Assembly: GCA_949288485.1 (NCBI GenBank)
Contig: CASEKC010000001.1
Location: forward strand, 166,241 to 230,240
DNA: 64,000 bases
Source of the DNA: an uncultured bacterium
GTDB lineage: Bacteria > Bacillota_I > Bacilli_A > RFN20 > CAG-826
Reading direction: 5' to 3'
Part shown: piece after piece, positions 2,237-56,144 of the stretch
Numbering within the stretch: the stretch's first letter is position 1
Layout: every line of letters starts with the position of its first letter
The notes under the pieces: model-generated
What the model was told of the DNA's origin: nothing
Database searches by the model: none
Seen by the model: only the letters and a program-made list of their open reading frames with translations
Made by a program: the position numbers and the translations under genes

Positions 2237-3400
2237 TTAAAAATCAGTATCATTTAGGAATTCAGGAATAATTGAATCCTCTTCTTCTTTTTCTTTATTG
2301 GCGGCTTCTTCTTTATTTCTTTCATCGGCTTTAAGTTTAGATTGTTCGACACTCTTTTCAAAAAGCATTTGTTGTTGTCTTTCTTTTTCTTCTTTTAATG
2401 CTGATAAATCAAGTTTAGTACCTGGATTAACTGAGAAATCAAATTCAGTATTGAAATCACCAGCAATAATTGAAACCATAATTTGATCATCGAGTTGATC
2501 ATTAACACTAATTCCAAATTTTAAATCAAGATTACCACCACAACTATAAACCATATGATCAACACATGTTTGGCAATCTAAAAGTGAAACACGAGGTCCA
2601 CAAGTAATATGACATAAAGCTTTTTGAGCTCCATCAATTGATTGTTCAATTAAAGGACAAGATAAAGCATTTTCTGCAGCTTCAATTGCATTATTAGCAC
2701 CTTGACCACTACCAAAACCAATTAAAGCAACACCACTATCTTTTAAAGTGGCTTTAACATCAGCAAAATCAAGATTAATAAATGAAGGCATTAAAATTAA
2801 ATCAGTAACTGTTTTAACAGATTTTGCTAAAACATCATCAGCAAGTGAAAAAGCTTCGCCAACTGGAAGATTTCCACTACTCATTAATAATTTATCGTTA
2901 GAAACAACAATTAATGAATCACAATTTTCTCTTAATTCATTTAATCCTTGAACACTAGCTTCAACCTTTTTTCTTCCTTCAAAAGTAAATGGACGAGTGA
3001 CAATTGCAACAGTTAAAGCACCTTCTTCTTTAGCTATTCTAGAAATTACAGGTGCAGCTCCAGTTCCAGTTCCTCCACCCATTCCAGCAGCAATAAAAAC
3101 CATGTTGGCTCCTCTAACTATTTCGCGAATATCTTCGCTAGAAGCTTCAGCAGCTTCTCTTCCTGCCATTGGATCTCCTCCAACACCAAGTCCACCAGTG
3201 ACATTTTCACCTAAAATAATTCTATTAGGAGCTTTTGATAAAGATAAAGCTTGTTTATCGGTATTTGCGACATAAAACTCAACATTTCTAATGTCTTCAT
3301 CAATCATTCTATTAACAGAGTTATTTCCAGCTCCGCCAACCCCAATAACAATAATTCTTGCTACTGGTTCAAAACCATCTAATTCATGTGTATCCATCAT
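2237..3400 (-). CDS. ftsZ: cell division GTPase FtsZ
   Basis: Tubulin signature GGGTGTG and N-terminal IVIGVGGAGNN are present. A disordered C-terminal linker is followed by a conserved C-terminal peptide. Confidence 0.95.
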   Translation of the reverse strand: MMDTHELDGFEPVARIIVIGVGGAGNNSVNRMIDEDIRNVEFYVANTDKQALSLSKAPNRIILGENVTGGLGVGGDPMAGREAAEASSEDIREIVRGANMVFIAAGMGGGTGTGAAPVISRIAKEEGALTVAIVTRPFTFEGRKKVEASVQGLNELRENCDSLIVVSNDKLLMSSGNLPVGEAFSLADDVLAKSVKTVTDLILMPSFINLDFADVKATLKDSGVALIGFGSGQGANNAIEAAENALSCPLIEQSIDGAQKALCHITCGPRVSLLDCQTCVDHMVYSCGGNLDLKFGISVNDQLDDQIMVSIIAGDFNTEFDFSVNPGTKLDLSALKEEKERQQQMLFEKSVEQSKLKADERNKEEAANKEKEEEDSIIPEFLNDTDF

Positions 3401-3443
3401 AGTTTTATCCTCGCTTTATCTTTATTTTTTTATCAAAATATTT

Positions 3444-4676
3444 TTATAAATCATCTTCATCTTCTCGATATTCTTCAACCTTTCTTTCAATAGGTTTTAT
3501 ATCGATTTTGGTTTCATCTTCTAAAGAACCTTTATAAACAGAAGTAAAGGCAATTGCTCCAAGAAGATTAATATCACCTGGTTCAAGAGCACCAATTGAA
3601 TCATTAGTAAAGAATTTTATTGGATTTGAAGAATGCAAACGATTAACAAATTCTTTAAATCCATTAAGTAAAGTTCCATTGCCAATAAAAACTAAAGGAA
3701 TATCTTCTTTTAAATTTCCATAGTCTTTAAGTAAATAATTAATTGAATTGGTAAATAATTTATCCCAATTATTTAAACATTCATCAACAACTTGAACAAG
3801 TTCATTTTTGTTATATTTTCTTTTAATTCCATCATCACCTAAAACTGATAAAATTGGAGCATTAAATTTAGTTTCTCTTAAATCATGCCCATAAATTATC
3901 TTTAATTCTTCAGCTTTATCCATCGAAATTTCAAAAGAATTAGCAATAGCGTTAGTTATATCATTTCCACCATTAGGGAAAGATGTCGAATCATAAAGTC
4001 TTCCATTACCAAAGAATGATACAGTTGTATTATCTTTGTTATAATCAACAAGTAAATATTTATCAAATGAAGATTTATTAATTTCTAAAAGAGAATTAAC
4101 TCCTAAAGGAGCAACGACGACTCTTTTAATTAAAATTCCGGCATCAGTGATTGCTTTTTTAAAATTTTCAACCATTACTTTAGGAAGTGTAAAAATATGA
4201 GCACTTACTAAAAGAGAATTTGAAAAATATCCTAAAGGTGGATCTTTATAAACTCGATTTCCTTCTAAAGAAAAAACATAAGGAATAATATCAACGATTT
4301 CATCATTTGGTTCATTAGTTCTTGCTTTTTTAATCATACTTAAAGCATTAGCAATATCGATTTTAGCAATTCTTCCATCACTAGAAATTGTATTAGTTGT
4401 TTTTTCATTAGAAAAAACTTTAAGACCAAAAGGAGGAAGAATTAATACTACTTCATTAATATCAACTCTTAATCTCTTTTTAGGATCTGAAATAACTTTT
4501 ATTTGTTTTAAATCTTCACTTAAAGAAGTTAAATCAAAAATGTCTCCATCTTTATTAGAGACTCTTAAAGGATATGTTCTTTTATAAAGAACATTAATTT
4601 TATTATCATATAAATAACCGATTAATAATTTAAAAGACGTATTTTTAATTTCTACGGCTGCAACTGTTATATCCAT
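3444..4676 (-). CDS. ftsA: cell division protein FtsA (start moved to MDITVAAVEI)
   Basis: Actin/Hsp70-fold FtsA sequence lies immediately upstream of ftsZ. The ORF-track start at 4715 adds 13 residues, and the internal ATG at 4676 aligns with the usual FtsA N-terminus. Confidence 0.85.
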   Translation of the reverse strand: MDITVAAVEIKNTSFKLLIGYLYDNKINVLYKRTYPLRVSNKDGDIFDLTSLSEDLKQIKVISDPKKRLRVDINEVVLILPPFGLKVFSNEKTTNTISSDGRIAKIDIANALSMIKKARTNEPNDEIVDIIPYVFSLEGNRVYKDPPLGYFSNSLLVSAHIFTLPKVMVENFKKAITDAGILIKRVVVAPLGVNSLLEINKSSFDKYLLVDYNKDNTTVSFFGNGRLYDSTSFPNGGNDITNAIANSFEISMDKAEELKIIYGHDLRETKFNAPILSVLGDDGIKRKYNKNELVQVVDECLNNWDKLFTNSINYLLKDYGNLKEDIPLVFIGNGTLLNGFKEFVNRLHSSNPIKFFTNDSIGALEPGDINLLGAIAFTSVYKGSLEDETKIDIKPIERKVEEYREDEDDL

Positions 4677-4771
4677 ACTATTAATAATTTTAATATGAAA
4701 ATATATAAAATACAATTAATAATATATATATTATTAATCAAAAATCACCTTAATTTTTACTTAAAAATAAA

Positions 4772-4810
4772 AAGCCAGATACTAATGAGAAATAAGTAGC
4801 TGGCTTTTTA
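4772..4810. terminator. hairpin terminator between the ftsL-like gene and ftsA
   Basis: aaaaAGCCAGatactaatgagaaataagtagCTGGCTttttt. Confidence 0.5.
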
Positions 4811-4862
4811 AAAAGGAAGAAATTATATGTGCAATAAGAATTATTTCGTCTTTAAAAGAGAA

Positions 4863-5090
4863 TTAAAATCTTTCTAAAGAATCTACTTCTTGATTATAAG
4901 ATTCTAAAGCGACTTCTCTTGATTCATTTCTTTCAATTTGTGGAAGAGAAACGATTGCTCTAACAATTGAAACTGGGATAGCAAAAAGAACAAATGCTCC
5001 TACAAAAGCACCACTGAAAATGCCAATCTTTTTTAAATAATAATAAATTTTTGAATGATTATTTCTATAAATTTTGTCTTTCATTTGCAT
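4863..5090 (-). CDS. ftsL: FtsL-like small bitopic division protein
   Basis: 75 aa with a single TM (FSGAFVGAFVLFAIPVSIV). It occupies the ftsL position directly after rsmH. Confidence 0.4.
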   Translation of the reverse strand: MQMKDKIYRNNHSKIYYYLKKIGIFSGAFVGAFVLFAIPVSIVRAIVSLPQIERNESREVALESYNQEVDSLERF

Positions 5091-5117
5091 AAATTGCTAT
5101 CTCCTTTTAAATAAAAC

Positions 5118-6056
5118 TTATAATTTTTTTAATATCCTTAATTTAGCGCTTTTACTTCTTCTATTTTCATTTATCTCTTCATTAGAAGGAGTAATTACTT
5201 TTTTATTAACTAATTCAAATTGAGCTTTTTTTATTTCATTAGGTAATAAATAATCATTTTTTCGATCGCCTTTAATAAATGAAACTTCTTTAAATTCATT
5301 TTTAACAATTCGATCTTCTAAAGAATGAAATGTAATAACGACAATTCGTCCATCTTTGTTTAATAAATTTAATGAATCATTTAAAGCAATTTTTAATACT
5401 CCAAGTTCATCATTTACTTCAATTCTTAATGCTTGAAATATTTTTTTAGCCGGATGCTTATCTTTAAACAATTCTTTTTTTGGTAAAGATTTTTTAATTA
5501 AATCAACTAATTCAAATGTTGTTTCAATTTCTTTTTCTTCTCTTGCTTTAATAATATTTTTAGCAATTGAATAAGAATATTTTTCTTCACCGTATTCTTT
5601 AAAAACTTTAACTAATTTTTCTAAAGGATAGGTATTAACAATTTTTTTAGCTGTCAAATTATTTTCTTGATTCATCCTCATATCAAGTGGAGCGTCATAT
5701 CGATATGAGAAACCACGATAATCTTCATCAAACTGTGGAGAGGAAACACCTAAATCGAATAAAATTCCATCTACTTTTGTAACTCCTCTTTTATTTAATT
5801 CTTCTTTTATATTTTTAAAATTAGAATAAATAATTTCGAAGTTATTTGAGATTGAAGCTAATTTTTCTTTGGAATATTCAATTGCTTCCTGATCTTGATC
5901 GAAACAATATAATTTACCATTTTTTAATTTTTTTAAGATTTCAGAACTATGTCCAGCTCTTCCTAGTGTCGCATCAACATAAATTCCATCTTCTCTAATA
6001 TTTAATCCTTCAATGGCTTCTTTTAGAAGGACACTCTTATGTTCGTTACTCTTCAT
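5118..6056 (-). CDS. rsmH: 16S rRNA (cytosine1402-N4)-methyltransferase RsmH/MraW
   Basis: Conserved YVDATLGRAGHS, FDLGVSS and VITFHSLEDRIVK motifs are present. It sits at the mraZ-rsmH position of the dcw cluster. Confidence 0.9.
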   Translation of the reverse strand: MKSNEHKSVLLKEAIEGLNIREDGIYVDATLGRAGHSSEILKKLKNGKLYCFDQDQEAIEYSKEKLASISNNFEIIYSNFKNIKEELNKRGVTKVDGILFDLGVSSPQFDEDYRGFSYRYDAPLDMRMNQENNLTAKKIVNTYPLEKLVKVFKEYGEEKYSYSIAKNIIKAREEKEIETTFELVDLIKKSLPKKELFKDKHPAKKIFQALRIEVNDELGVLKIALNDSLNLLNKDGRIVVITFHSLEDRIVKNEFKEVSFIKGDRKNDYLLPNEIKKAQFELVNKKVITPSNEEINENRRSKSAKLRILKKL

Positions 6057-6501
6057 TGCTAAATATCTTTTCAGCGTTTATTTCAAATTCATCATCGTTT
6101 GAAGATTCTTGATCATTCCATTTATTGAAATCCCAAATTTCGAAATGATCAATTGCTCCAAGGATATGAACTTTGCTTTCGATTCCAAATTTTTCTAATA
6201 CTTTAGAAGGAATAAGAATTCTTCCTTGATTATCTAAAGTAAGTTGAACAACTGAATCGAGGAAACTTCTAAGAGCTTTACGAACTTCGCTTTTTTCGTA
6301 GGATTTAGCTTGGTATTTAAGAACAACTTTTTGAAAGTCTTCTTCTTTGTAAATAGATAAGCAGCCATCAAAACCACGAGTAAGATAAACGTTTAAATCG
6401 TTTCCAATTTCTCCTCTGAATTTTGAAGGAATTACTAATCTCCCTTTGCTATCGAGATTGTAATCATAGCTTCCTATAAACATTCTCCCAAATTCCTCCA
6501 C
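6046..6501 (-). CDS. mraZ: division/cell wall cluster transcriptional regulator MraZ
   Basis: The duplicated MraZ fold is present: DxxxR motifs (LDSKGRLVIPSKFR and LDNQGRILIPSKVL). It is the first gene of the cluster. Confidence 0.9.
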   Translation of the reverse strand: MEEFGRMFIGSYDYNLDSKGRLVIPSKFRGEIGNDLNVYLTRGFDGCLSIYKEEDFQKVVLKYQAKSYEKSEVRKALRSFLDSVVQLTLDNQGRILIPSKVLEKFGIESKVHILGAIDHFEIWDFNKWNDQESSNDDEFEINAEKIFSNEE

Positions 6502-6766
6502 TTTCTACCACATGTCATTATTTTATACCACAATATTATTTTATACAAGAAAAATATGCAAATTTTTTTAATAATTTTTTTAACTGATTTTTAAAAGTTT
6601 AATTTTTAATTTATATTATAAATTAAAAATTAATTTTTTAAAAAAATATATAAAAATAATCTTTTTTTATTTAATGTGGGAGACTGTCCCTAAATATAAT
6701 TTGTAATATTTTTTAAAAAAATTGTTATTATATAAATAACAAATTTTATGTATAGGAGGAAAAATT

Positions 6767-7201
6767 GTGGTTTGTAAAAAATGTGGGCAAGAATATGACG
6801 ATAATATGAATTTTTGTCCAAATTGTGGATTTAAAAAGGATGGCGAATTAAAAGAAAAGAAAAATATCGATTATAAAAAGTTAGTAAATTTATTAAATAT
6901 CGTATTTTTTGGATTTGCTATGTTATTTACTTTTGTATGGTTGATGGTTTATTCAAATCAATCATCTATAACTACTTTTTTAGCACTTACTTCACTTGGT
7001 GGTATATTTTCAACATTCTATTTAGTAACACAAAGCTTATCTTTTCTTTTCGCTTTCACTAATAAGGAGAAAAAACTAGAATTAAAAGATTTAATAATCT
7101 TTATAATGTTATTAGTTGTTGCATTAGTATTATTTATTACTAACTGGGTATATTTATCTATCTTTGCAAAATATAATTCTATATTTGGTAGTTTCTATTA
7201 A
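6767..7201 (+). CDS. zinc-ribbon domain membrane protein
   Basis: The N-terminus has a CxxC...CxxC motif (MVCKKCGQEYDDNMNFCPNCG) followed by 3 TM helices. Confidence 0.5.
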   Translation: MVCKKCGQEYDDNMNFCPNCGFKKDGELKEKKNIDYKKLVNLLNIVFFGFAMLFTFVWLMVYSNQSSITTFLALTSLGGIFSTFYLVTQSLSFLFAFTNKEKKLELKDLIIFIMLLVVALVLFITNWVYLSIFAKYNSIFGSFY

Positions 7202-7212
7202 AATTTAAACAT

Positions 7213-7255
7213 AAAAAAATCGGAATCTAGATAATTGAGATTCCGATTTTTATTT
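7213..7255. terminator. bidirectional terminator
   Basis: aaaaaaATCGGAATCTagataattgAGATTCCGATtttt, between convergent genes. Confidence 0.6.
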
Positions 7256-7747
7256 TTATAAATCAATATCTTTTAATACATCAAATGGTGATTCTTTTTC
7301 TTTATTTAATTCATCATTAAGTTCATCTTCACTATAAACTTTAAAATCATCTCCACTAGGAAGAGTTTCATCATCTCCATGAATATTTAAAGGAATTGAT
7401 GTTAATAATAATGAATATACGATTTCATCTAATGAAATAATTTCTTTAGTATAAAAAACTTCTTCTGATTCATTATTTTGATCGTTAGTAAAATATAAAG
7501 TATCGACTACATCGATATTTTTATTAATATTTTTTAAAGAATAAGCACTAATCGCATCAACATTAAAGATTAAATCAAAATCAATGATTAATATATCATT
7601 AACTTTTGAAAAAGTAATTTCACCACTTACATTATTAATTTTCGAAATAATTGAAGAATGATTTAATTCATTAAGTGTTTCAATTAAAGGGGAATAAGAG
7701 ATAGTTTCTTTACTCCCTTCTTTAAAAGAAGAAAAATTAATATTCAT
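7256..7747 (-). CDS. acidic small protein, possibly YceD/DUF177-like
   Basis: 163 aa, highly acidic, downstream of pheT. The size and composition resemble DUF177 proteins, but no diagnostic Cys motif was seen, so the call is weak. Confidence 0.3.
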   Translation of the reverse strand: MNINFSSFKEGSKETISYSPLIETLNELNHSSIISKINNVSGEITFSKVNDILIIDFDLIFNVDAISAYSLKNINKNIDVVDTLYFTNDQNNESEEVFYTKEIISLDEIVYSLLLTSIPLNIHGDDETLPSGDDFKVYSEDELNDELNKEKESPFDVLKDIDL

Positions 7748-7755
7748 AAATAGTT

Positions 7756-10152
7756 TTAACCTCTAAATTCAGCTTTAAATTTTGTAATTAAAATTTCTTT
7801 TATTTTATTATCTAAAGCGTTTATTTCATCTTCTTTTAATGTTGAATCCATTTTTTCTAAAGTAATACTTAATGCGAGTGAAACATGATTTTCTTTAATA
7901 TTTTCACCCTTATAAATATCAAATAAAGCAATGTCTTTAATTAAAGAAGATGCTTTTTTAATTTCATTTTTAATTGATAAATATGAATAATCTTCACTAA
8001 CTATAAAAGCATAATCTCTTTTTACTTTAGGAAATTTAGAAATTTCAAAGAATTTATTATTAGCACTACGTGTATTAAATAATAAAGATAAATTCATTTC
8101 TAAAATTTCACAAGCTTCTTTTTTAAGTGAGAATTCATTACGTTTTAAAGAATGAATATCACCTAAAACAGCTAAAACTTTACCATCTAAAATAACTTCT
8201 GCACTTCTGTTTGGATGGAATTCATCATTGTTATTTTTAATAATATTCCGTTTTATACGATTATTATCGATATTAAATAAAGCTAAAATTCCTTCTAAAT
8301 AACCTTTTAAATCATAAAAAGAATAGGAAGAAGAAATTATTCCATCTTGAACATGTTTATTTCCAAGAAGACCCATTGAAAGATGAATTTCTTCTTTGTC
8401 ACCTTTTGAATAAACATTAGAAATTTCAAAAACTTTAAAATCAGTTTCTTTATGATTGATGTTATATTCAATAGTTCTTAAAAGTGAAGTTAAAATATTT
8501 TTTCTAATAAATTTATGGTCTTCAGTTAATGGATTAGAAATAACAATTCCTTCATTTTTATTGATGAAATTAAACATATTATTGTCTTTTTCATTAATTA
8601 ATGTATAAGTTAAAATTTCATTAAATCCATTATTTAAAAGATAAGATTCAATATTTCTCTCTTTTTCTCTTAAAGTTGAAACACTTCCAACTGTAGTTTC
8701 CATAACAGGAAGTTCATTTGAAATATAATCAAATCCTTTATATCTAATAATTTCTTCACTTAAATCAGCTTTTCCTTCAACATCAATTCGATAAGAAGGG
8801 ACGGTTGCTTTAAAGTTATCATTATCAATATTTTCTATTTCAAAATTTAAAAGAGTTAAAACTTCTTTTACTTCTTCAAAATTGAAATTAGAACCTAAAC
8901 GTTTATTAATGTAAGTTAAAGAACAATCGATAACCTTTTTATCGTGAGATAAAGTATCATATCTAATTACATTTGAAACTTCTTCAAAATTAGAAACTTC
9001 TTTTAATAAATGGATGAATAAATTTAAAACTTCTTCACTTTGATCTTTATTAATACCTTTAGAGAATCTTAAAGAAGAATCACTTGATAATCCTAATCTA
9101 TTTGATGTTTTTCTAATTGAAGCAAAATTAAAATTTGCTACTTCGATAACAATATTTTTACTAGTAGAAGAAATTTCACTATTTTCTCCACCCATAATTC
9201 CACCTAAACACATAGTTTTATTATCACTAGTTACACATAAATCTTTTTCTTCGATTTTATATGTTTTTTCATCTAAAGCGGTGAAATCTTCACTAATATT
9301 ATCTTTAACAATTAACTCTTTTTTAGGTAATTTATCTAAATCATAACAATGAATTGGTTGACCAGTTAAAAGCATGACATAATTACCTAAATCAACGACG
9401 TTATCAATACTTCTAATTCCTTCACTTTGTAAAACTTCTTTTAACCATTTTGGAGATTCTTTAATTTCGATTCCTTTAACAATCTTTGCATAAAAAGATT
9501 TACATGCTTCTGTTTCAGAAGAAATTTTAAAATTATTTTCTTCATAGGTATGAAATTCTTCAAAAGTAGGAATTGTAACTTTTCTATTAAATAATGCTCC
9601 TATTTCTCTTGCGACATTATAAAGAGCATAACAATCACTTCTATTAGCTAAAAGTGATAAATCTAAAATAGTATCATCAAGTTCTAAATATGATAAAACG
9701 TCTTTATTTCCAATTGGTGCATCAAGAGGAAGTTCTTCAATACCTTCAAGTTGTTCTTTCTTTAAATATTTAGGATCAACACCTAATTCGTTTAAAGCAC
9801 AAAGCATACCATTAGATTCACAACCTCTAATCATACCTTTATTGATAGTTTTTCCAGCTAAGATAGCTCCAGGAAGAGCGACAATAACTTTTAAACCTTT
9901 TCTTACATTTGGAGCACCGCAAACAATATCTAAAATATCGCTTCCAACATCAACTTTACAAACGTGTAAATGGTCGCTATCTGGATGATTTTTGCAATCA
10001 ATTACTTCACCAATAACTAAATTTGTAGCATCAGCACTTTTTTTAATTTCTTCAACTTCAATTCCAGAAAAAGTTAATCTTGAGGCAATTTCTTCAGGAG
10101 TTAAGGAAGAAATATCAACATATTTAGAAATTTCTTTTAAACTTACTAACAT
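7756..10152 (-). CDS. pheT: phenylalanine--tRNA ligase beta subunit
   Basis: 798 aa with a tRNA-binding domain at the N-terminus and B3/4 and B5 domains. It is adjacent to pheS. Confidence 0.95.
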   Translation of the reverse strand: MLVSLKEISKYVDISSLTPEEIASRLTFSGIEVEEIKKSADATNLVIGEVIDCKNHPDSDHLHVCKVDVGSDILDIVCGAPNVRKGLKVIVALPGAILAGKTINKGMIRGCESNGMLCALNELGVDPKYLKKEQLEGIEELPLDAPIGNKDVLSYLELDDTILDLSLLANRSDCYALYNVAREIGALFNRKVTIPTFEEFHTYEENNFKISSETEACKSFYAKIVKGIEIKESPKWLKEVLQSEGIRSIDNVVDLGNYVMLLTGQPIHCYDLDKLPKKELIVKDNISEDFTALDEKTYKIEEKDLCVTSDNKTMCLGGIMGGENSEISSTSKNIVIEVANFNFASIRKTSNRLGLSSDSSLRFSKGINKDQSEEVLNLFIHLLKEVSNFEEVSNVIRYDTLSHDKKVIDCSLTYINKRLGSNFNFEEVKEVLTLLNFEIENIDNDNFKATVPSYRIDVEGKADLSEEIIRYKGFDYISNELPVMETTVGSVSTLREKERNIESYLLNNGFNEILTYTLINEKDNNMFNFINKNEGIVISNPLTEDHKFIRKNILTSLLRTIEYNINHKETDFKVFEISNVYSKGDKEEIHLSMGLLGNKHVQDGIISSSYSFYDLKGYLEGILALFNIDNNRIKRNIIKNNNDEFHPNRSAEVILDGKVLAVLGDIHSLKRNEFSLKKEACEILEMNLSLLFNTRSANNKFFEISKFPKVKRDYAFIVSEDYSYLSIKNEIKKASSLIKDIALFDIYKGENIKENHVSLALSITLEKMDSTLKEDEINALDNKIKEILITKFKAEFRG

Positions 10153-10158
10153 AAATAA

Positions 10159-11199
10159 TTAATCCTCCTTAACCTTTTTGAATTCTTTAATAAATCTTAA
10201 ATCGTTTTGATAGAATCTTCTAATATCATCAATTCCATATTTAAGCATTGCGACTCTTTCAATACCGATTCCAAAAGCAAATCCACTATAAACTTCAGGA
10301 TCATAACCAGACATTTTTAAAACATTTGGGTGAACCATTCCAGCACCTAAAATTTCAATCCAGCCACTTCCTTTACATAATGGACATCCTTTTCCTTTGC
10401 AGTTAAAACAAGAAATATCAACTTCAACTGAAGGTTCTGTAAATGGGAAAAAGGAAGAACGGAATCTAACTTTTGTATCTTTGCTAAACATTTTTTTAGC
10501 AAATAATTCTAAAGTTGCTTTTAAGTTACCTAAATTAATATTTTTATCGATAACTAAACCTTCAACTTGAGCAAATTGATGAGAATGTGTCATATCATCA
10601 TCATCTCTACGATAAGTTTTTCCAGGACAAATGATTTTGATTGGTTGTCCTTTTGCTTTTTCCATGACATGAGCTTGAACTGATGAAGTATGGCTTCTTA
10701 AAAGAAGATTATTATCGATATATAAAGTATCTTGCATATCTCTAGCAGGATGATCATGAGGAATATTTAAAAGTTCAAAAACATACTTATCATAATCAAC
10801 TTCTGGACCAGTTTCGACACTATATCCCATTCCTACGAAAATATCTTCTATTTCATTAATAATTTTATAAAAAGGATTAGCACTTCCTCTTTGATAACTA
10901 TTTCCAGGTAATGTTATATCGATTTTTTCTTTTTTTAAATCTTCAATAAGTTTTTTATTTTCTTCTTCTTTTATTTTTATATCTAAAGCTTCTTCAACAC
11001 TTTTTCTACAAGCATTATACATTTCACCAAAAGCTTTTTTATCTTCAACTTCCCTAATATGATTCATCATTAAAGAGATTTCACCTTTTTTAGCCAAATA
11101 TTTATTTTTTAATTCGGTTAAATCTTTTAAAGATGATGCTTTACTAATCTCTTCTAAACATTTTGTTTTAAGATTTTCAAAATCTAAAGCATAATCCAT
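10159..11199 (-). CDS. pheS: phenylalanine--tRNA ligase alpha subunit
   Basis: Class II aaRS motifs are present (FRxxxFPFTEPS, GxGxGxERVAM). Confidence 0.95.
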   Translation of the reverse strand: MDYALDFENLKTKCLEEISKASSLKDLTELKNKYLAKKGEISLMMNHIREVEDKKAFGEMYNACRKSVEEALDIKIKEEENKKLIEDLKKEKIDITLPGNSYQRGSANPFYKIINEIEDIFVGMGYSVETGPEVDYDKYVFELLNIPHDHPARDMQDTLYIDNNLLLRSHTSSVQAHVMEKAKGQPIKIICPGKTYRRDDDDMTHSHQFAQVEGLVIDKNINLGNLKATLELFAKKMFSKDTKVRFRSSFFPFTEPSVEVDISCFNCKGKGCPLCKGSGWIEILGAGMVHPNVLKMSGYDPEVYSGFAFGIGIERVAMLKYGIDDIRRFYQNDLRFIKEFKKVKED

Positions 11200-11204: not shown

Positions 11205-11460
11205 TTTCCTCCTAAAAATAAAAAGAGAATTAGTTATAGGAGTGTTAAATTTTAACACGGTACCATCCTAATTCTTAAAAAATCTTAATTTACTTTATTA
11301 CGTCAAAGCTAACGGGTTCATCAAACCAGCTCCAAGGCGAATTCATAATCCCATTTTATAGAGTTTTTCACTATCACTCCTCACTAATATAAAATTAAAG
11401 AAAAATTACTACTCCTTTTCAACGCAAAAATATTATACATAAAATTAATTATTTTATAAA
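11205..11460 (-). promoter_or_regulatory. T-box riboswitch leader of pheST
   Basis: The reverse complement of 11255-11273 reads AATTAGGATGGTACCGTGT, which matches the T-box consensus AAUUAGGGUGGUACCGCG. An overlapping terminator/antiterminator hairpin (gtgttaaa/tttaacac) lies upstream of pheS. Confidence 0.55.
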
Positions 11461-15231: not shown

Positions 15232-15642
15232 ATGAATATTTTATTTTTCTTAACACCTAAATCTCATATAAAAGTCATAGAATCGAGTATGTCGATACGT
15301 CAAGTATTAGAAATATTTGAACATTATCGTTATTCTACTTTGGCGATTATTGATGAAAAAGGTAAATATTTATCAACAATTAGTGAAGGTGATTTACTTT
15401 ATTATTTAAAAAATAATCTTAGATTTGATTTAAGAAGCTATGAAAATATTAATATTTTAGTAGTTCCAACCTATCGTCCTTATAAAGCAATTTCAGTTTT
15501 AGAAGAAATGGATGCTTTAATTATTAAAGCAATGGATCAAAATTTTGTTCCAGTAGTTGATGATAATGGTTCGTTTATTGGAATTATTACAAGAAAATCA
15601 ATTATTAAATATTTAATGGATAAAAAAATAGGATTTAATTAA
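15232..15642 (+). CDS. CBS-domain pair protein
   Basis: 136 aa with two CBS-like repeats (…STLAIIDEKGKYLSTISEGDLL… and …VPVVDDNGSFIGIITRKSII…). Confidence 0.55.
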   Translation: MNILFFLTPKSHIKVIESSMSIRQVLEIFEHYRYSTLAIIDEKGKYLSTISEGDLLYYLKNNLRFDLRSYENINILVVPTYRPYKAISVLEEMDALIIKAMDQNFVPVVDDNGSFIGIITRKSIIKYLMDKKIGFN

Positions 15643-15656
15643 AAATCCTATTTTTT

Positions 15657-16931
15657 TTAATATTTTTCAATTATTTCTTTAGCTAGAAAAACTAAATTAT
15701 AACGAGAATCATTATTTCCTTTTTGCCATTTTCTCCACTTATGATTATTATTACTTAAATCATCTCCAAAATAAATAATAGCACCATAATTAACTTTAAA
15801 ATATTTAGTTAAAGCAATTAAACCAGCTTGTTCCATTTCTACAACTATCGCTCCTTCTTCTTTTCTTCTATTAACTCGACTTTTTGTTTCGCGATACATC
15901 GAATCAATACTCCACGATAATCCTTTTTTATATGGAATATTTTTTCTTCTTAATTCATTTTCAATTTTTATAACAATATCTTTATTTGAATAAATAATTC
16001 TTGAAGGCGGTTCATAAAAGAAAGAAAATCCTTCATCACGAATTGCTCCATCTATTAAAACTAAATCACCAACATTTGAAGGAATTAAACTGCCTCCTCC
16101 ACCAATAAATAATATATTTTTTAAGCCGTTTGTAATTAAAAGATGAATAAATCCACCAATTAAAGGTTCACCAACTAATCCTTTTATAATAAAAATATCT
16201 TTATTATCGTTAAATTGATATATAAATAATGAATTTTCACCTCTTATTTCACTATAAAAAGTAATTATATTTTCTTTTTCTAATCTATCGATTACTTCAT
16301 GAAAATAACAAATAATTGCTTTATCTTCTTTTTTAAATCTTAAAAATATATTTTCACTTTCTAAAAATTGTTCTTCTTTTCCATCAAATTCAGTTAATGG
16401 AATAGAATTATATTTTTTATCATTATTTAAAGGAATTCTTAAATAAACACAGCCATTATCATAATGATGAATATAACCATCATTCGATAAAATTGTATTT
16501 ATTGAAGCTTTATTATATTCATAACATTCAAAATAAAGCTCATCTTCTTTATATAATTTATTTAATTTTAAATATTCAATTAATAATTTTAATCCTTCCT
16601 TGGCATATCTTTTGTTTCTAAAAGAAGGAAGAATAAAATAACCAATGTGTCCACTATGATCTTTTAAAAAATCATTTAAATAATGACGGAATTTAAATAA
16701 ACCAATGATTTCTTCATTCTTATAAAGAAAAAAATAAGTATCAGGAACATGACCTTCTTTTAAATTTATACCTTTTTCACTTTCTTTTCTTTCTTTTAAA
16801 ACTTTATTTTTAAATTCATCTAATGAAATATTAGAATATGGATTTTCAAATCCATTTTCACTCTCAAACTTTTGAAAAAATTCATACTCTTTTAAATAAT
16901 CTTCATTATTAAACTTTTTTAAATAAATCAT
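15657..16931 (-). CDS. fusion protein: N-terminal GNAT acetyltransferase-like domain plus C-terminal family-1 nucleoside phosphorylase (PNP/UDP/MTAN-like) domain
   Basis: The N-terminal ~170 aa carry a GNAT motif-A-like segment (GHIGYFILPSFRNKRYAKEG). The C-terminal ~240 aa carry PNP_UDP_1 signatures (IGGGGSL…GDLVLIDGAIRDEG…EGAIVVEMEQAGL…FGDDLS). Confidence 0.5.
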   Translation of the reverse strand: MIYLKKFNNEDYLKEYEFFQKFESENGFENPYSNISLDEFKNKVLKERKESEKGINLKEGHVPDTYFFLYKNEEIIGLFKFRHYLNDFLKDHSGHIGYFILPSFRNKRYAKEGLKLLIEYLKLNKLYKEDELYFECYEYNKASINTILSNDGYIHHYDNGCVYLRIPLNNDKKYNSIPLTEFDGKEEQFLESENIFLRFKKEDKAIICYFHEVIDRLEKENIITFYSEIRGENSLFIYQFNDNKDIFIIKGLVGEPLIGGFIHLLITNGLKNILFIGGGGSLIPSNVGDLVLIDGAIRDEGFSFFYEPPSRIIYSNKDIVIKIENELRRKNIPYKKGLSWSIDSMYRETKSRVNRRKEEGAIVVEMEQAGLIALTKYFKVNYGAIIYFGDDLSNNNHKWRKWQKGNNDSRYNLVFLAKEIIEKY

Positions 16932-16939: not shown

Positions 16940-17623
16940 TTATTCCTTTTTCTTTTTATTTATTAGTTTAACAATAAAATAATAAATATAACAAAGTAAT
17001 ATAACAAAAATTAATAAAATAATGATGTAATAAAATACTCCAATTCCTTTTTCAGTTATATTAAACCAAGTTAAAGTTTCATAATCTAAGAAAAAATAAG
17101 GAACTAATTGTCCATTAAAACGAATATTTAATGAAACACAAATAAAAACAAAAGCTAAATATAAAAGCGGAAAAATAGTTCCTATTAAAGGTGACCATTT
17201 TTTTAATTTTATTTTATGATCAAAAACAAAAAAATCGATTATTGCAAATAAAGGAACAAGTAAATGAACAGTTAAATTTGTCATCGATATTAAATAAGAA
17301 GCATCCATTGTTGGAGCTAAAAGAATAAAAAATACTAAAAAAGTGATTGTAACACCCAAAGTAAAAATAAATTTAATGTGATATAAAATATTATTTATTA
17401 AATCTTTTTTTAAAAATAAATTAACTATTTTTAGTATAAAAAATAATAAGGTTACAAGAATAATGGCGATATTTGATTGAATTGTAAAATATAAAAATGC
17501 TGAGCCATTTCCCATAAATCCACTTGTAAAACAGTTAATTATTATTCCATATATTCCAAATATTAGTAATAATAATTCATTTAAAAGATTAAAACTTATT
17601 TTAATAACTTCTTTTTTATCCAT
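16940..17623 (-). CDS. polytopic membrane protein, unknown function
   Basis: 227 aa with 5-6 TM helices, co-oriented and tightly spaced with the GNAT-PNP fusion gene. Confidence 0.45.
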   Translation of the reverse strand: MDKKEVIKISFNLLNELLLLIFGIYGIIINCFTSGFMGNGSAFLYFTIQSNIAIILVTLLFFILKIVNLFLKKDLINNILYHIKFIFTLGVTITFLVFFILLAPTMDASYLISMTNLTVHLLVPLFAIIDFFVFDHKIKLKKWSPLIGTIFPLLYLAFVFICVSLNIRFNGQLVPYFFLDYETLTWFNITEKGIGVFYYIIILLIFVILLCYIYYFIVKLINKKKKE

Positions 17624-17640: not shown

Positions 17641-17685
17641 TTTTAAAAAGGCTAGTAAATTAATTTACTAGCCATCTTTTTATTT
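17641..17685. terminator. terminator after glgP (bidirectional form)
   Basis: ttttaaaaaGGCTAGTAAAttaaTTTACTAGCCatcttttt, a 10-bp stem. Confidence 0.6.
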
Positions 17686-40890: not shown

Positions 40891-41787
40891 TTATCTATTT
40901 TTTTTATTTTTCTTATCTAAAGTATGAATAATTTCATAAACAGTTTTAAGTGCTAACCAAGAAGTAATATTATTTACATCTAAAGGTGGAGCTACTTCAA
41001 CTATTTCTAAACTAGTGACATTGCTTGTTGAAATAAGTCCAGTTATTAAATTTAAAATATCGATTGATTGAAGTCCAAATGCTTCTGGAGTTCCCGTTCC
41101 TGGAGCAAAGGATGGATCATTAGCGTCAATGTCATAAGAAATATGAATTTCATATTTTGGATCTTTATATTTAGAAGTTAAAAGTAATAATAAAGGTTCA
41201 ATGCCTAATTTATTAACATCAACTGCTTTATAAACATCTAAAAGTGGGTGTTTTTTAAATATTTCAATTTCTTGAGCTTCAAACCCACGAACTCCAATTA
41301 AAGTAACGTTATAATCTTTATATCCTAAATCAAGAGCTCTTTTAATTGGGCAAGCATGAGAATAAATAGAACCATGATAACTATCGCAAATATCAGGATG
41401 AGCATCAATATGAATAATAACAGGTTCTTTTCCTCTTTTTAAACAATCGTTATAAAAAGCTTTTTCACTAGCTATAGCAATTGAATGATCACCACCAAAA
41501 ATAAGGTGGAATTTATCATTATATGAATAAAATTCTTCTTCCATTTTTTTAGCTAAAGAGGTAAAAGTTTCATCAGCTTCATAATCTCCTAAATCAAAAA
41601 TTTTTGATTTTAAAAGATTACCTTTCATATCTAAAGCAGGTAAATCATAAGATAATTCTCTTAATACTTGAGGAGCTAAAGATGCTCCTTTACCCACACT
41701 AGCATTTTTATCAAAAGGTACACCAACTAATAAAATATCACTGGATTCGATATTTTCGGCTAATAAATCTCTAAATTCTTCTTTCAT
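40891..41787 (-). CDS. arginase/agmatinase/formiminoglutamase-family ureohydrolase
   Basis: Mn-binding motifs GGDHS, DAHPD and SYDIDANDP are present. Confidence 0.7.
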   Translation of the reverse strand: MKEEFRDLLAENIESSDILLVGVPFDKNASVGKGASLAPQVLRELSYDLPALDMKGNLLKSKIFDLGDYEADETFTSLAKKMEEEFYSYNDKFHLIFGGDHSIAIASEKAFYNDCLKRGKEPVIIHIDAHPDICDSYHGSIYSHACPIKRALDLGYKDYNVTLIGVRGFEAQEIEIFKKHPLLDVYKAVDVNKLGIEPLLLLLTSKYKDPKYEIHISYDIDANDPSFAPGTGTPEAFGLQSIDILNLITGLISTSNVTSLEIVEVAPPLDVNNITSWLALKTVYEIIHTLDKKNKKNR

Positions 41788-41790: not shown

Positions 41791-43230
41791 TTAAATTTTA
41801 CCTTCTCTATCAATATTTTCTTTAATTTCAGAATCACCTAAATTTGAGAATTTATCAATCATCATCTTGCTTTTAACATTATGTTGTAAGTTACATGGAC
41901 CACCAATACATCCACCTTCACAAGCCATACCTTCAATAAAATTAAATAAGTTTTTATTATTTTTAAGCTCTAAAAGTGCTTTACGGATATTATCCATTCC
42001 ATCAACATTTATACCTTTAACTTCAAAATCAGTATTTGTTTCTTTTAATGCTTGTTCAACAGCTTTTGATAATCCACCACATTTAGCAAATCCTCTACCG
42101 AATTTAGAACCTTTTTTAAATTCTTCTTCTGGAAGAGAAGCTAAATCTATTTCATATGCATCAAATAAAGCTTGAAGTTCTTCAAAAGTCATTACACTAT
42201 CAACATATGGACTAACTCTTGGATTTTTAATTTCGCTCTTTTTAGCTGTACAAGGACCAATAAAAACAATTTTTGCAAGAGGATCTTTCTCTTTAATATA
42301 TTTTGAAATCATTGCCATTGGTGAAAGTGATGAAGAAATATATTTAGAAAGTTCTGGGAAGAATTTTCTAATATATAATGCGAATGCTGGACAGCATGAA
42401 GACGTTAAAACTTCTCTTTCAGCAAGTTCATGACTTTCTTCTAAAGCAACCATATCAGCTCCTAAAGCAGCTTCAAAAATACTTCCAAAACCAAGTTGTT
42501 TAATACCAGCAACAATTTGTCCTGTTTTATAATCTAAGAAATTTCCACCAATTGAAGGTGCTACTACTGCATAAATATGATTTTTAGCGTTAGTTCTAAG
42601 AATATTTAAAATTTCTTTAATATAGGATACATCAACAATTGCACCAAATGGGCAAGTATAAACACATGCACCACAATGGATACATTTTTCATCATTAATA
42701 ACTGCTGAATTATCATCTTCTAGCATATTAGGCGAAATTGCTTTTTGTTTACAAGCTCTTTCACATGGTCTAACTCTATTTTCAATAGCGCTATATGGAC
42801 ATGCTTTTGCACATAAACCACAATTTATACAATTGCTCTTATCAATTTTAGCTCTTAAACCATCTGTAAAAGATATACATTTTTTTGGACATGCTTCATA
42901 ACATCTATGAGCAATACAACCTCTACATTGATCGCTTGAAACAGTATATCCACCTAAAGGACATTCATCACAAGCAATAGAAATAACTTTAATAACATTT
43001 GAATCATCTTTACTTGAAGCATTCAAAATCAATTTAACTCTTTCTTCGACAATTGCTCTTTCTTTATAAACGCAACATCTAAATGAAGGTTTTTTTCCAG
43101 GAATAACATTATGAACAATGTTAGATAAATCATTATAGTCTAATTGAGTTTTCCCTTCTTTTAAATATTTAACAGTTTCTACTAAAACTTTATGTTTAAG
43201 TTCTTGGACTCTCGTTTCAAATTTAATCAT
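41791..43230 (-). CDS. [FeFe]-hydrogenase, M2-type (two ferredoxin-like [4Fe-4S] clusters plus H-cluster domain)
   Basis: Two CxxCxxCxxxCP ferredoxin motifs are followed by the H-cluster signatures TSSCCPAF (L1), IGPCTAKKSE (L2) and EGMACEGGCIGGP (L3). Confidence 0.8.
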   Translation of the reverse strand: MIKFETRVQELKHKVLVETVKYLKEGKTQLDYNDLSNIVHNVIPGKKPSFRCCVYKERAIVEERVKLILNASSKDDSNVIKVISIACDECPLGGYTVSSDQCRGCIAHRCYEACPKKCISFTDGLRAKIDKSNCINCGLCAKACPYSAIENRVRPCERACKQKAISPNMLEDDNSAVINDEKCIHCGACVYTCPFGAIVDVSYIKEILNILRTNAKNHIYAVVAPSIGGNFLDYKTGQIVAGIKQLGFGSIFEAALGADMVALEESHELAEREVLTSSCCPAFALYIRKFFPELSKYISSSLSPMAMISKYIKEKDPLAKIVFIGPCTAKKSEIKNPRVSPYVDSVMTFEELQALFDAYEIDLASLPEEEFKKGSKFGRGFAKCGGLSKAVEQALKETNTDFEVKGINVDGMDNIRKALLELKNNKNLFNFIEGMACEGGCIGGPCNLQHNVKSKMMIDKFSNLGDSEIKENIDREGKI

Positions 43231-53637: not shown

Positions 53638-54708
53638 TTATAAACTATAAGAAGTATTATATACAAAACTAGTAACAGGGTTATTTCCAATTACTGAACC
53701 ACTTGCTTCCATTATTTCAATAGTTGAAGTCATATCCACAATAAAAGGCGCTGCTTCTTCTTCGATTGGTTGTTCTATAAAATTAAATAATTTAAAACAA
53801 TTAAAAGGTTCAGAATTTTGGCTAACATATGGTTCATTATTACTATATGGATTTAAAAAAGTAACTTCGTTATATCCATAAGTAAGAAAATCGCTCCAAT
53901 ATTTAAACTCTACACAACCTGGATACATATAATGGCTACCTTCGATATAACAAGAATTATTATGAGTTAATCCACAATCTAAATAAAAATTAAATTGTTC
54001 TTCTGGATCTTCTCCATCATCATTCCCATAAGGAAGAACATCCCGTAAATTAAGGTTTTCTTTTGAAAAAAATACTTCGTTTTTAAAATGTTTATATCTT
54101 AACTTTTTATTATTTTGATTTAAAAAAATTTTATAAATATCTCCTAAAGCATAATCTTTAGTATCTTCGTATGTTTTTACAATATTTCCAAAACAATTAC
54201 TTATTATTCTCCCAAAATTATTATTATTTTTATCTAATGATATTAAGTTCCTTTTTGAAAAAACTTTTTCCCGGTTTCCAATAAAATTCATTGTAACAGG
54301 ACCATTTAATAAATAAGGATCATGCGGATTCGTAATTTCTTCAATTAATTCATCTAAAGAAGTTGCAGACATTTCATCACTTCCAAAAAAGGATCCGTTT
54401 TTAATCACACCATTTTCAATATATTTAAAGGTTCCTAGTTCTTCTAAATATATATAATTTTCATTATTTTTACTAAAACTATTCTCCTTTTTATCATTAA
54501 ATAGAAAACAATCATCATTAAAAAAAATTTCATATCCTTCTTTATCAAGCGAACCAAAAGTTTTTGATTCATATAAATTATATTTTTTTATTAATTCATC
54601 AAACGTGAATTCATTTGTTTCTAAATTTGGGGTTGAACTACAACCTGTTAGATATAAAGAAATGAGTAAAAATAAAAATTTATTTAATATTTTTCTTTTC
54701 ATAAACAA
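53638..54708 (-). CDS. lipoprotein, unknown function
   Basis: A signal peptide with lipobox LTGC (MFMKRKILNKFLFLLISLYLTGCSS) is present. Its start overlaps the upstream XRE gene by 29 nt. Confidence 0.6.
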   Translation of the reverse strand: MFMKRKILNKFLFLLISLYLTGCSSTPNLETNEFTFDELIKKYNLYESKTFGSLDKEGYEIFFNDDCFLFNDKKENSFSKNNENYIYLEELGTFKYIENGVIKNGSFFGSDEMSATSLDELIEEITNPHDPYLLNGPVTMNFIGNREKVFSKRNLISLDKNNNNFGRIISNCFGNIVKTYEDTKDYALGDIYKIFLNQNNKKLRYKHFKNEVFFSKENLNLRDVLPYGNDDGEDPEEQFNFYLDCGLTHNNSCYIEGSHYMYPGCVEFKYWSDFLTYGYNEVTFLNPYSNNEPYVSQNSEPFNCFKLFNFIEQPIEEEAAPFIVDMTSTIEIMEASGSVIGNNPVTSFVYNTSYSL

Positions 54709-55186
54709 CCGTCCTTATTAAAAGTCCTAAAAATACAAAAAAAGCTATAAAAAAAAGAATAAAGAAAACTTTAAAAATAATTAATTCTAGAGTTTTCCAG
54801 CTAATATACCACCATAAAACTTCTAAAGATTGATATTCTTTCACATAAATAGGATTATAAATTGAATATATTATTTCGAATATTAATACTGCAAAACTTA
54901 AAAGACATCCGCTCAAAAATGAATATGAAATTATTTTAATTCGAACTAACTCTTTATCCTTATTAAAATTAGATTTTAAGGCTTCCCCAATAAATTCTTC
55001 ATATGAAACATTAAACGTTGTTAATATTCTATTTAAAATATAAATATCGATTGTTCTACTACCTTTTTCATATCGGCATAAAGAGCTTCTTGATATGCCA
55101 AGTTTATCAGCCAAAGCTTCTTGAGAAAGATTATTTTTTATTCGTAATTCTGTGATTTTATGACCGATAATTTCATTTGTTAGCAT
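54680..55186 (-). CDS. XRE-family HTH regulator with C-terminal transmembrane segments
   Basis: An N-terminal Cro/C1-type HTH (LRIKNNLSQEALADKLGISRSSLCRYEKG) is followed by 2-3 TM helices. Confidence 0.65.
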   Translation of the reverse strand: MLTNEIIGHKITELRIKNNLSQEALADKLGISRSSLCRYEKGSRTIDIYILNRILTTFNVSYEEFIGEALKSNFNKDKELVRIKIISYSFLSGCLLSFAVLIFEIIYSIYNPIYVKEYQSLEVLWWYISWKTLELIIFKVFFILFFIAFFVFLGLLIRTVVYEKKNIK

Positions 55187-56132: not shown

Positions 56133-56144
56133 AGGTGATTATTT

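Follow-up and report, generated by a model that had tools for sequence, protein, structure and literature searches.

A single uninterrupted gene of 424 codons, found in the 64,000-nucleotide stretch of bacterial DNA analysed here (the window), joins an N-terminal GNAT acetyltransferase domain to a C-terminal domain of the NP-I nucleoside phosphorylase fold. Both folds are known; judged by its sequence, the protein is an uncharacterised variant, on account of its architecture and the loss of phosphate ligands from the C-terminal domain. Because relatives lie behind RNA switches that sense methionine or SAM, the fusion is probably tied to the handling of methionine/SAM by-products. We tentatively propose that it is a bifunctional cytoplasmic enzyme in which a nucleosidase for SAM-derived adenosyl compounds is coupled to an N-acetyltransferase, serving to recycle or clear these by-products. 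The gene and its parts are as follows:

15657..16931, minus strand: GNAT::PNP_UDP_1-like fusion ORF, 424 aa plus stop codon (identical to database protein P0153)
16431..16931, minus strand: N-terminal GNAT domain, aa 1–167
16323..16430, minus strand: inter-domain linker, aa 168–203 (less confident in the model)
15660..16322, minus strand: C-terminal domain of NP-I (PNP_UDP_1) fold, aa 204–424, of an uncharacterised subfamily

An earlier note on this DNA had read the region as one ORF with these two domains, without giving the strand, and both Pfam and AlphaFold2 agree. Acetyltransf_1/Acetyltransf_3 matches aa 56–146 (E about 1e-7, above the gathering cutoff), PNP_UDP_1 (PF01048) matches aa 206–390 (74.9 bits against a cutoff of 25.1, E 8e-21), and the AlphaFold2 model of the fusion (mean pLDDT 91.8) consists of two domains and a lower-confidence linker. 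The N-terminal domain belongs to the GNAT superfamily by both its fold and its Pfam match. The linker carries IPLTEFD, the local form of a family-conserved “P-(I/L)-x-E-F-D” that is the N-terminal motif of the PNP-like domain.

With hundreds of homologues, the ORF is not a chance product of DNA with 21–24% GC. Nor is it a frameshift or assembly artefact, a point that the earlier note had wanted checked: the same architecture, 416–424 aa long, is kept in ~20 protein clusters (31–100% identity) from many independent assemblies. Among orthologues, the N-terminal domain (31–78% identity) and the C-terminal domain (36–81%) have diverged at similar rates. NCBI names the fusion members only as “GNAT family N-acetyltransferase”, and literature searches found no characterised enzyme with a GNAT-PNP_UDP_1 architecture; the earlier note knew of none either.

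The C-terminal domain belongs to a PNP-like family that is very widespread, with at least 589 confirmed matches among species-representative genomes and a range covering Clostridia, Treponema, Mollicutes-like Bacilli, Actinomycetota and Chloroflexota. It carries generic annotation only, and the defining residues of its parent enzymes are missing from it. The sites that bear on its chemistry are:

16107..16109, minus strand: codon of Phe275, which HMMER and hhalign alignments place where E. coli PNP has its phosphate-binding Arg87
15831..15839, minus strand: Glu365-Met366-Glu367, the ribose-binding E-M-E motif (VEMEQAG)
15759..15764, minus strand: Asp390-Asp391 (G-D-D), the first of which corresponds in alignments to the catalytic residues Asp204 (PNP) and Asp197 (MTAN)

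V364-E365-M366-E367 is invariant or nearly so in the family, and the domain thus has both the NP-I ribose motif and the catalytic Asp. The position equivalent to Phe159 of PNP is also kept, and the glycine-rich strand is present (“LFIGGGGS”). The earlier note had listed EMEQA, the glycine-rich strand and the phosphate-binding segment as conserved; the first two are, but the third is not. Where the hexameric NP-I phosphorylases (DeoD, Thermus thermophilus PNP 1odi, Sulfolobus solfataricus MTAP 1jds and the uridine phosphorylases; 15–21% identity) have Gly20/Arg24, Arg87 and Ser90/Thr, the family has Phe, Ile, Phe and Gly. In the window protein these are Phe210/Ile214, Phe275 and Gly278, the last lying three residues past Phe275 (reference residues in E. 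coli PNP numbering). The N-terminal “GxPxR” motif has become “YFHEVI” in the window protein and “FFxE” in the family, with Phe210 invariant, and Arg is absent from the phosphate-ligand positions in all 39+30 aligned family members. These replacements make a canonical phosphorylase unlikely, and because of them the domain is probably a hydrolase instead.

Comparison with models of characterised enzymes places the window protein far below every cutoff: 30.4 against 232 bits (TIGR00107) and 36.4 against 230 bits (PRK05819) for DeoD, 18.1 against 280 (TIGR01718) and 17.7 against 262 bits (PRK11178) for uridine phosphorylase, and 38.9 against 264 bits for the short form of AMP nucleosidase (PRK07115/TIGR01721), for which relatives reach at most 71.6. 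The MtnN models (PRK05584/TIGR01704) do not match the window protein at E≤1, and stand-alone relatives score 29–37 bits, below the cutoff of 169. Of the MTAN catalytic residues, Glu174 and Asp197 have equivalents. Arg193 falls opposite Ile386 and the stretch around Glu12 is unaligned; no counterpart was found for either, which counts against our proposal.

Together with the lost phosphate ligands, the DeoD, Udp and MtnN scores argue against ordinary nucleoside salvage, in which a purine/uridine phosphorylase or hydrolase would be joined to an unrelated housekeeping GNAT (e.g., one that acetylates ribosomal proteins or polyamines), with the two activities uncoupled. We consider this unlikely, although it draws on source annotations that name relatives “uridine phosphorylase” (the JGI name) or “nucleoside phosphorylase”, on genomic contexts that are variable and mostly solitary, and on a uridine kinase and a nuclease near one relative (L111). 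The same annotations, with the best profile match of the C-terminal domain (4lnh, a “uridine phosphorylase” of Vibrio fischeri from structural genomics), also put the base specificity in doubt and count against our own proposal.

The family has invariant residues of its own: P178, D183, R298, W340, R347, E348, R400, W402 and R410. A bolder reading, to which we give little credence, is that it forms a new NP-I catalytic class, with the phosphate pocket rebuilt from Phe210/Phe275, Arg298-Asp-Glu, Arg347-Glu and Arg400. With the GNAT, it would then constitute a starvation-induced two-step pathway, controlled by a T-box or a SAM riboswitch, that N-acetylates and de-purinates amino-acid-adenosine conjugates (SAH-like metabolites, or aminoacyl-adenylate mimics that block MetRS/IleRS). 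We know of no described pathway that acetylates and depurinates such conjugates. N-terminal extensions of high-GC homologues (L055, L075, L078 and others) are ORF-calling artefacts that add no domain, except in L069, where HEAT repeats form the N-terminus and a paralogue lies in tandem.

The link to methionine and SAM comes from regulatory RNAs. An Rfam scan took in ~170 family loci and found riboregulators of the PNP-like gene itself in two lineages only. In a sister clade, T-box leaders (99–110 bits) lie immediately 5′ of the orthologous fusions P0004 and P0015. Here, the fusion is the first gene of an operon, followed by metN and then a metI-metQ fusion, with genes overlapping or 8 nt apart; the T-box specifier is AUG (Met), in the same register as in the metG T-box of L014. 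In three Chloroflexota loci, a SAM-I aptamer is followed by a terminator and then by the ATG of a stand-alone PNP-like gene. This ATG opens straight into the conserved PILEFD, with the protein starting M[M][I]YPILEFD or MLNNDYPILEFD. No riboregulator of the PNP-like gene was detected at the ~150 other loci, the window included, and the statistics are modest when riboregulators are counted as evolutionary events; both points weigh against our proposal. Searches for T-box and SAM leaders with nhmmer profiles and fuzzy regexes, which are insensitive methods, gave nothing new; a stem-I covariance model outperformed them in the T-box search. Literature searches on PNP_UDP_1 genes regulated by T-boxes or riboswitches returned nothing relevant. 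Specific control by Met or SAM in two lineages is a further point against uncoupled salvage. The earlier note had suggested nucleoside or MTA cleavage: the Met T-box, metNIQ and SAM-I elements of relatives lend indirect support to MTA-type cleavage. A phosphorylase with an intact phosphate site is unlikely, given the lost ligands.

From the architecture, the folds, the kept and lost residues and these RNAs we infer the following scheme for the proposed SAM-linked enzyme. The genes of relatives are turned on when tRNA-Met is uncharged (T-box) or SAM runs low (SAM-I riboswitch). The C-terminal domain, a hexameric-type NP-I fold without a canonical phosphate site, would act by hydrolysis on a purine (adenine) ribonucleoside, breaking its N-glycosidic bond in the manner of MTA/SAH nucleosidase and AMP nucleosidase. 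The most likely substrates, because of the T-box-Met and SAM-I control of relatives, would be SAM-derived adenosyl compounds, i.e., MTA, SAH, 5′-deoxyadenosine or a related amino-acid-adenosine conjugate. Using acetyl-CoA, the GNAT domain may N-acetylate an amine that belongs to that substrate, to its product or to a companion metabolite, and in this way the two activities would be coupled. If the family is indeed a nucleosidase regulated by Met/SAM, it could be the missing or alternative enzyme that clears MTA, SAH and 5′-deoxyadenosine in many gut and environmental anaerobes, and reconstructions of the methyl cycle, of the formation of SRH (a quorum-sensing precursor) and of adenine salvage would change.

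T-boxes can also be read differently. In a “cap and cleave” detoxification, the targets would be conjugates of amino acid and nucleoside that act as inhibitors of aminoacyl-tRNA synthetases, for example non-hydrolysable mimics of aminoacyl-adenylates. The GNAT would cap their alpha-amine with an acetyl group, like MccE and RimL, and the nucleosidase would remove the base. Uncharged tRNA accumulates when a synthetase is inhibited, which would make the T-box the sensor. T-boxes of two specifiers, Met and Ile, do precede GNAT(-PNP) units. In Christensenella, the T-box in front of an adjacent GNAT has an Ile specifier instead of a Met one, and a hairpin lies between the GNAT and the PNP-like gene, which counts against our proposal; the Anaerorhabdus fusion lies downstream of a T-box-metG unit, with no predicted terminator between them. 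NCBIfam also includes a model of an IleRS with a GNAT domain. Nevertheless, we regard this detoxification as improbable: the SAM riboswitch on stand-alone members is ill-suited to synthetase inhibition, the GNAT partner is missing from most family members, genes for resistance or biosynthesis are absent from the vicinity, and the likeness to MccE is at the level of the fold only (E 0.02 in the sequence profile). We know of no natural mimics of Met- or Ile-adenylate from gut habitats.

The pairing of GNAT and PNP-like domains has arisen more than once. The Anaerorhabdus fusions (P0070/P0079) carry a different, RimJ/L-like GNAT (18–20% identity) on the same C-terminal domain (43–45%). In several lineages, GNAT and PNP-like genes are separate and adjacent, 1–63 nt apart. 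In Treponema (L028) and in contigs from the human gut (L135–L164), an ENGF-type GNAT follows the PNP-like gene; the human-gut cases are gene pairs that full-length tblastn matches had made look like fusions. The order is reversed in L166, L169, L172 and L184, further pairs occur in L030 and L070, and L022 has a homologous GNAT three genes downstream. Such recurrent pairing with an N-acetyltransferase points to an acetylation-coupled step without a described counterpart, and the two independent fusions and tight operonic pairs speak against uncoupled salvage. However, GNAT adjacency is enriched only modestly over background, and GNAT detection is biased; both points count against our reading, and the modest enrichment favours salvage. 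All-against-all clustering of neighbours at 80 GTDB loci yielded no conserved neighbour beyond GNATs. Most members of the PNP-like family have no GNAT partner.

The GNAT domain of the fusion forms a distinct subfamily, recognisable by “ENGF / RH...GH-IGY / R-x-K-G-Y-A” and by the further motifs GYVP and RH-x-LN, with stand-alone members of ~168 aa. Its nearest folds (RimJ, RimL, MccE, SpeG, YncA and PAT) are amino-group acetylators, acting on alpha-amino groups or polyamines. The best PDB sequence matches of its profile are SpeG spermidine acetyltransferases, which suits a housekeeping GNAT in ordinary salvage. The domain falls outside the RimL/RimJ equivalog (aminoacyl-nucleotide acetyltransferase), and no NCBIfam equivalog fits it, with weak matches to ArsN1a only. 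Besides the motifs of its subfamily, a further difference of the window allele from RimJ, RimL, the C-terminal domain of MccE and SpeG is this site:

16608..16610, minus strand: codon 108, which encodes Arg within the acetyl-CoA pyrophosphate loop R-x-x-G-x-A, at a position where Gly is at least 90% conserved

The family loop reads R105-x-K-G108-Y-A110, and the window allele is G108R. The position is polymorphic among strains, with R in P0153, P0154 and P0157 and G in 10 others. Separately, the T-box clade (P0006–P0015) has lost the GNAT-family invariants ENGF, R82, H83 and H95 and keeps its C-terminal domain intact. Because of G108R and these losses, GNAT activity may be dispensable or degenerate in some lineages, which counts against our proposal. 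Both observations, and a stand-alone C-terminal family far wider than the pairing, would fit a GNAT that is an acetyl-CoA-sensing regulatory or degenerate module, controlling or scaffolding the nucleosidase instead of acting as a second catalyst. We think this improbable: the GNAT is as conserved as the C-terminal domain across orthologues, and nearly all fusions retain R-x-x-G-x-A, N140 and S143; stand-alone GNAT homologues, too, look like normal enzymes.

The earlier note had also raised an effector role, and domains of the PNP_UDP_1 superfamily placed C-terminal to another module are indeed known from defence, as in the ATP-nucleosidase type of CBASS Cap17 and Detocs DtcC, whose base release is presumably phosphate-independent. 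An anti-phage or toxin effector of this kind, in which the GNAT would serve as a sensor or add a second toxic activity, is nonetheless highly improbable here. PADLOC matched 0 families with the fusion, the relatives P0113 and P0079 (stand-alone members included) or the neighbouring membrane protein, no partner sensor genes are present, contexts are of a housekeeping kind (glycogen genes, pheST, metNIQ) and not a defence neighbourhood, and relatives are under riboswitch or T-box control.

The immediate surroundings of the gene in the window are as follows:

16940..17623, minus strand: six-pass membrane protein, 227 aa (Pr6Pr/MAGa3780-like), upstream of the fusion
17650..17673, minus strand: terminator-like hairpin between the glgP stop codon and the membrane protein gene, splitting the glycogen genes from the pair
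15621..15656, no strand assigned: AT-rich inverted repeat with flanking A/T runs, between the convergent fusion and CBS-domain genes

The repeat is likely a bidirectional terminator, to go by its sequence; the terminator scanner missed it, as it has too few G-C pairs. A functional link to the upstream glgB-glgP genes is ruled out by the hairpin after glgP and by the lack of such synteny in orthologues. The membrane protein had been called an orphan, which it probably is not, given its score just below the cutoff for NF038065 (Pr6Pr; 28.3 bits against 30) and a match to the MAGa3780 family (28.4 against 80). Its co-transcription with the fusion, also claimed before, is probable: 8 nt separate the two genes, the stop codon of the upstream one overlaps an SD-like AAGGA, and the hairpin lies upstream of both. 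The association does not extend beyond this locus, as the membrane protein gene is absent beside every orthologue of the fusion examined. In a 99.84%-identical strain, it has a premature stop codon, and the fusion is intact, differing at E52K and R108G. These orthologue contexts and the nonsense mutation of the sister strain rule out a conserved partnership of the two genes.

The fusion gene is a single uninterrupted ORF of 424 aa (15657–16931, minus strand; G+C ~21–24%) in housekeeping chromosomal DNA of an uncultured low-GC member of the Bacillota. The window also carries ftsAZ, mraW, pheST, polC, glycogen genes, pfk, pyk, thrS, an Fe-hydrogenase gene and adhE. An earlier note read the ORF as a GNAT domain joined to a nucleoside-phosphorylase-type domain, and this architecture is real: Pfam matches both domains, and AlphaFold2 predicts two domains with confidence (mean pLDDT 91.8, from an alignment of 39 relatives; 91.1 for the N-domain alone). 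The features of the protein are as follows.

Residues 56–146: GNAT (Acetyltransf_1/Acetyltransf_3), Pfam
Residues 206–390: PNP_UDP_1, Pfam (E = 8e-21)
Residues 1–167: GNAT domain, AlphaFold2 model
Residues 168–203: linker of lower confidence, AlphaFold2 model
Residues 204–424: alpha/beta domain, AlphaFold2 model

A frameshift or assembly artefact can be rejected, since the initial database search found the same architecture in ~20 clusters (416–424 aa, 31–100% identity) from many independent assemblies. One database protein, P0153, is identical to the window protein; a named orthologue from Candidatus Enterosoma merdigallinarum (40% identity) is called "GNAT family N-acetyltransferase" at NCBI. 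Orthologue identity is 31–78% in the N-domain and 36–81% in the C-domain, i.e., the two halves diverge in parallel, the pattern expected if both are under selection.

Stand-alone proteins (~254 aa, 41–48% identity to the C-half of the fusion) make up the large family into which the C-domain falls; their sources name them only as "nucleoside phosphorylase" or "uridine phosphorylase". Scanning a single genome for each GTDB species gave at least 589 confirmed matches to this PNP-like family, and the matches listed span Treponema, Clostridia, Lachnospiraceae, Acholeplasma, Actinomycetota, Chloroflexota and others. None of the NCBIfam equivalog cutoffs is reached by the C-domain: the fusion scores 38.9 bits with the AMP nucleosidase model (cutoff 264), 30–36 bits with the DeoD models (cutoff ~230) and 18 bits with the Udp model (cutoff 280), and does not match the MtnN models. 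The top match of the family profile is 4lnh, a structural-genomics "uridine phosphorylase" (E = 3e-28), followed by SsMTAP (7e-24), PNPs, AMP nucleosidase (1e-16) and MTANs (1e-8).

Residues were mapped onto PDB sequences and onto those of E. coli PNP and MTAN. The ribose-binding segment is conserved, as the earlier note had it (V-E-M-E, 364–367). The Phe159 position is also retained (Phe in most family members, Met345 in the fusion), and Asp390 aligns with PNP Asp204/MTAN Asp197. The claim of a conserved phosphate-binding segment is wrong, since those residues are lost: "Y-F210-H-E-V-I" stands in place of "GxPxR", Phe275 in place of Arg87 and Gly278 in place of Ser/Thr90. None of the aligned family members has an Arg at the lost positions. 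The family has new invariants (P178, D183, R298-D-E-G, W340, R347-E348, R400, W402 and R410). Judged by the residues kept and lost, the C-domain is more likely a phosphate-independent nucleosidase.

Our working hypothesis, a tentative one, is a bifunctional enzyme acting on SAM-derived adenosyl compounds. The NP-I domain would hydrolytically release the purine base from MTA, SAH, 5'-dAdo or a related amino-acid–adenosine conjugate, the GNAT domain would N-acetylate an amine in the same pathway, and in some lineages the enzyme would be expressed under Met or SAM scarcity. Two kinds of RNA leader bear on expression. First, in P0004 and P0015 (46–52% identity to the window protein), the fusion gene heads an operon in which metN (ABC_tran+NIL) and then a metI-metQ fusion come next, overlapping or 8 nt apart. 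Directly upstream are T-box leaders (Rfam, 110 and 99 bits), whose specifier loop, GAA-C-AUG-G, is in the same register as GAA-G-AUG-G of the metG T-box in L014 and is read as Met. An M20-family peptidase gene is divergent from these operons (L004, 6445–7581, minus strand; L011, 5487–6608, minus strand). M20 genes also accompany Met ABC transporter genes in streptococci, and the association would point to import of N-acyl-methionine and its deacylation. Second, a SAM-I aptamer (70–77 bits) precedes three stand-alone members from Chloroflexota; a terminator hairpin follows it, and the start codon after that leads straight into the conserved N-terminal "PILEFD" motif (with Y or NNDY preceding it). 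That two unrelated sensors of the Met/SAM pool precede one protein family by coincidence is unlikely; each is confined to a single clade, so we count riboregulation as moderate evidence. No leader was found before the fusion or PNP-like gene in the window or at ~150 other loci scanned.

From the three Met T-boxes we built a covariance model of stem I, which found one further leader, in Christensenella (L029; 39 bits, E = 2e-5), with specifier AUC (Ile). It stands before a third type of GNAT gene, itself upstream of a PNP-like gene. The two genes are separated by a GC-rich spacer of ~350 nt with a strong hairpin and T-run (2627–2980), making co-regulation uncertain; this stretch may represent a terminator, or else a leader of the PNP-like gene that went unrecognised. 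Downstream of that gene (3940–5700) lie ~1.7 kb of degenerate, GC-rich direct repeats (period ~280 nt) with many internal sub-repeats. In the window, the same kind of search gave a T-box stem I in the gap between an MFS gene and pheS (11329–11431, minus strand; own model, 23.7 bits, E = 0.08), with specifier loop GAA-UUC-G (Phe) and a T-box-core-like 12-mer further downstream (L001, 13665); Rfam does not report it at the gathering threshold.

GNAT and PNP-like genes also pair outside the window lineage. P0070 and P0079 (Anaerorhabdus) carry a different GNAT, RimJ/L-like and with 18–20% identity to the window N-domain, and a C-domain with 43–45% identity: an independent GNAT fusion to the same type of C-domain. 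Separate genes lie together at the following loci.

Treponema L028, same strand: PNP-like then ENGF-type GNAT, 2-nt gap
Set of human-gut contigs, same strand: PNP-like then ENGF-type GNAT, 38-nt gap
L166, L169, L172 and L184, same strand: GNAT then PNP-like, 26–27 nt gap
L030 and L070, same strand: PNP-like then GNAT
L053, same strand: GNAT then PNP-like, 433-nt gap

At L022, a homologous GNAT gene lies three genes downstream of the PNP-like gene. An ordinary salvage enzyme accidentally fused to an unrelated GNAT is a rather unlikely account. GNATs are common, most PNP-like loci have none nearby, and adjacency with redundancy removed is only modestly over measurable background, in a search whose seeds were those very neighbours. 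A meaningful pairing is argued for more strongly by the two fusions, which are independent and long-lived. Among the GTDB loci clustered, PNP-like genes have no other conserved neighbour. The stand-alone P0113 of L022 lies within a same-strand run (4532–11088) of ~10 short genes, mostly without Pfam match, including two GNAT-like genes and AAA_33/AAA_18 kinase-like genes. L069 has tandem PNP-like paralogues (2689–3501 and 3444–4601), the second with an N-terminal HEAT-repeat region, another fusion of the family.

The N-domain falls in a compact GNAT subfamily, also found as stand-alone proteins (~168 aa, 39–59% identity, e.g., in Blautia producta), with motifs ENGF, GYVP, RH-x-LN, GH-IGY and R-x-K-G-Y-A. 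Profile and fold searches gave generic relatives only (SpeG, RimJ/L, N-terminal acetyltransferases, YncA, PAT and MccE), and in NCBIfam the relatives have at most weak ArsN1a matches. Detoxification in the manner of MccE ("cap and cleave"), directed at aminoacyl-adenylate mimics and with the T-box serving as the sensor, seems improbable to us. The RimJ-like GNAT beside the PNP-like gene of L070 weakly matches NF040702, a curated model of isoleucine-tRNA ligase with an N-acetyltransferase domain, which may bear on this idea. Similarly doubtful is a regulatory or degenerate GNAT. Residue 108 of the acetyl-CoA loop (16608–16610, minus strand) is Arg in the window allele and Gly in at least 90% of the family; among 14 cluster members, three have R and ten G (P0001 and its relatives have G), with one unread, and G108R is a within-species polymorphism. 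A defence effector is very improbable, with no PADLOC matches. The remaining probability falls to explanations outside those considered. The window also encodes an arginase/agmatinase-family protein (40891–41787, minus strand), an Fe-only hydrogenase (41791–43230, minus strand) and a bifunctional AdhE (44235–46850, minus strand); the first hints at polyamine synthesis, relevant if the GNAT were polyamine-directed.

The domains are of known kinds, and the proteins are already in NCBI and JGI under generic names. In the literature, we found no characterised enzyme with GNAT plus PNP_UDP_1 architecture and no study of a PNP-like subfamily lacking the phosphate site. The PNP-like proteins form a widespread enzyme family that lacks annotation, and the hypothesis put forward for them is clear and can be tested; any new mechanism would be putative.

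Upstream of the fusion gene, at a distance of 8 nt, is a gene for a 227-aa six-pass membrane protein (16940–17623, minus strand), whose stop codon overlaps a Shine–Dalgarno-like AAGGA. A terminator-like hairpin separates glgP from this pair, and an AT-rich inverted repeat lies 3' of the fusion stop codon. The membrane protein, earlier taken for an orphan, resembles the Pr6Pr and MAGa3780 families, with a score just short of the cutoff for the first; its gene is absent beside every fusion orthologue examined. The window copy of this gene is intact. A metagenome strain with 99.84% identity (L001, 7309–7992) has a TCA-to-TAA nonsense mutation that converts Ser41 to stop; there, gene callers split the gene into 40-aa and 148-aa pieces, and the fusion gene is intact. 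Elsewhere in the window, 56000–62000 has very low G+C (18–20%) and several ORFs without Pfam match; a phage-integrase-family gene (59162–60325, plus strand) adjoins a tRNA gene (60372–60442, plus strand), and an HTH regulator lies at 54680–55186. The stretch looks like an integrated mobile element.
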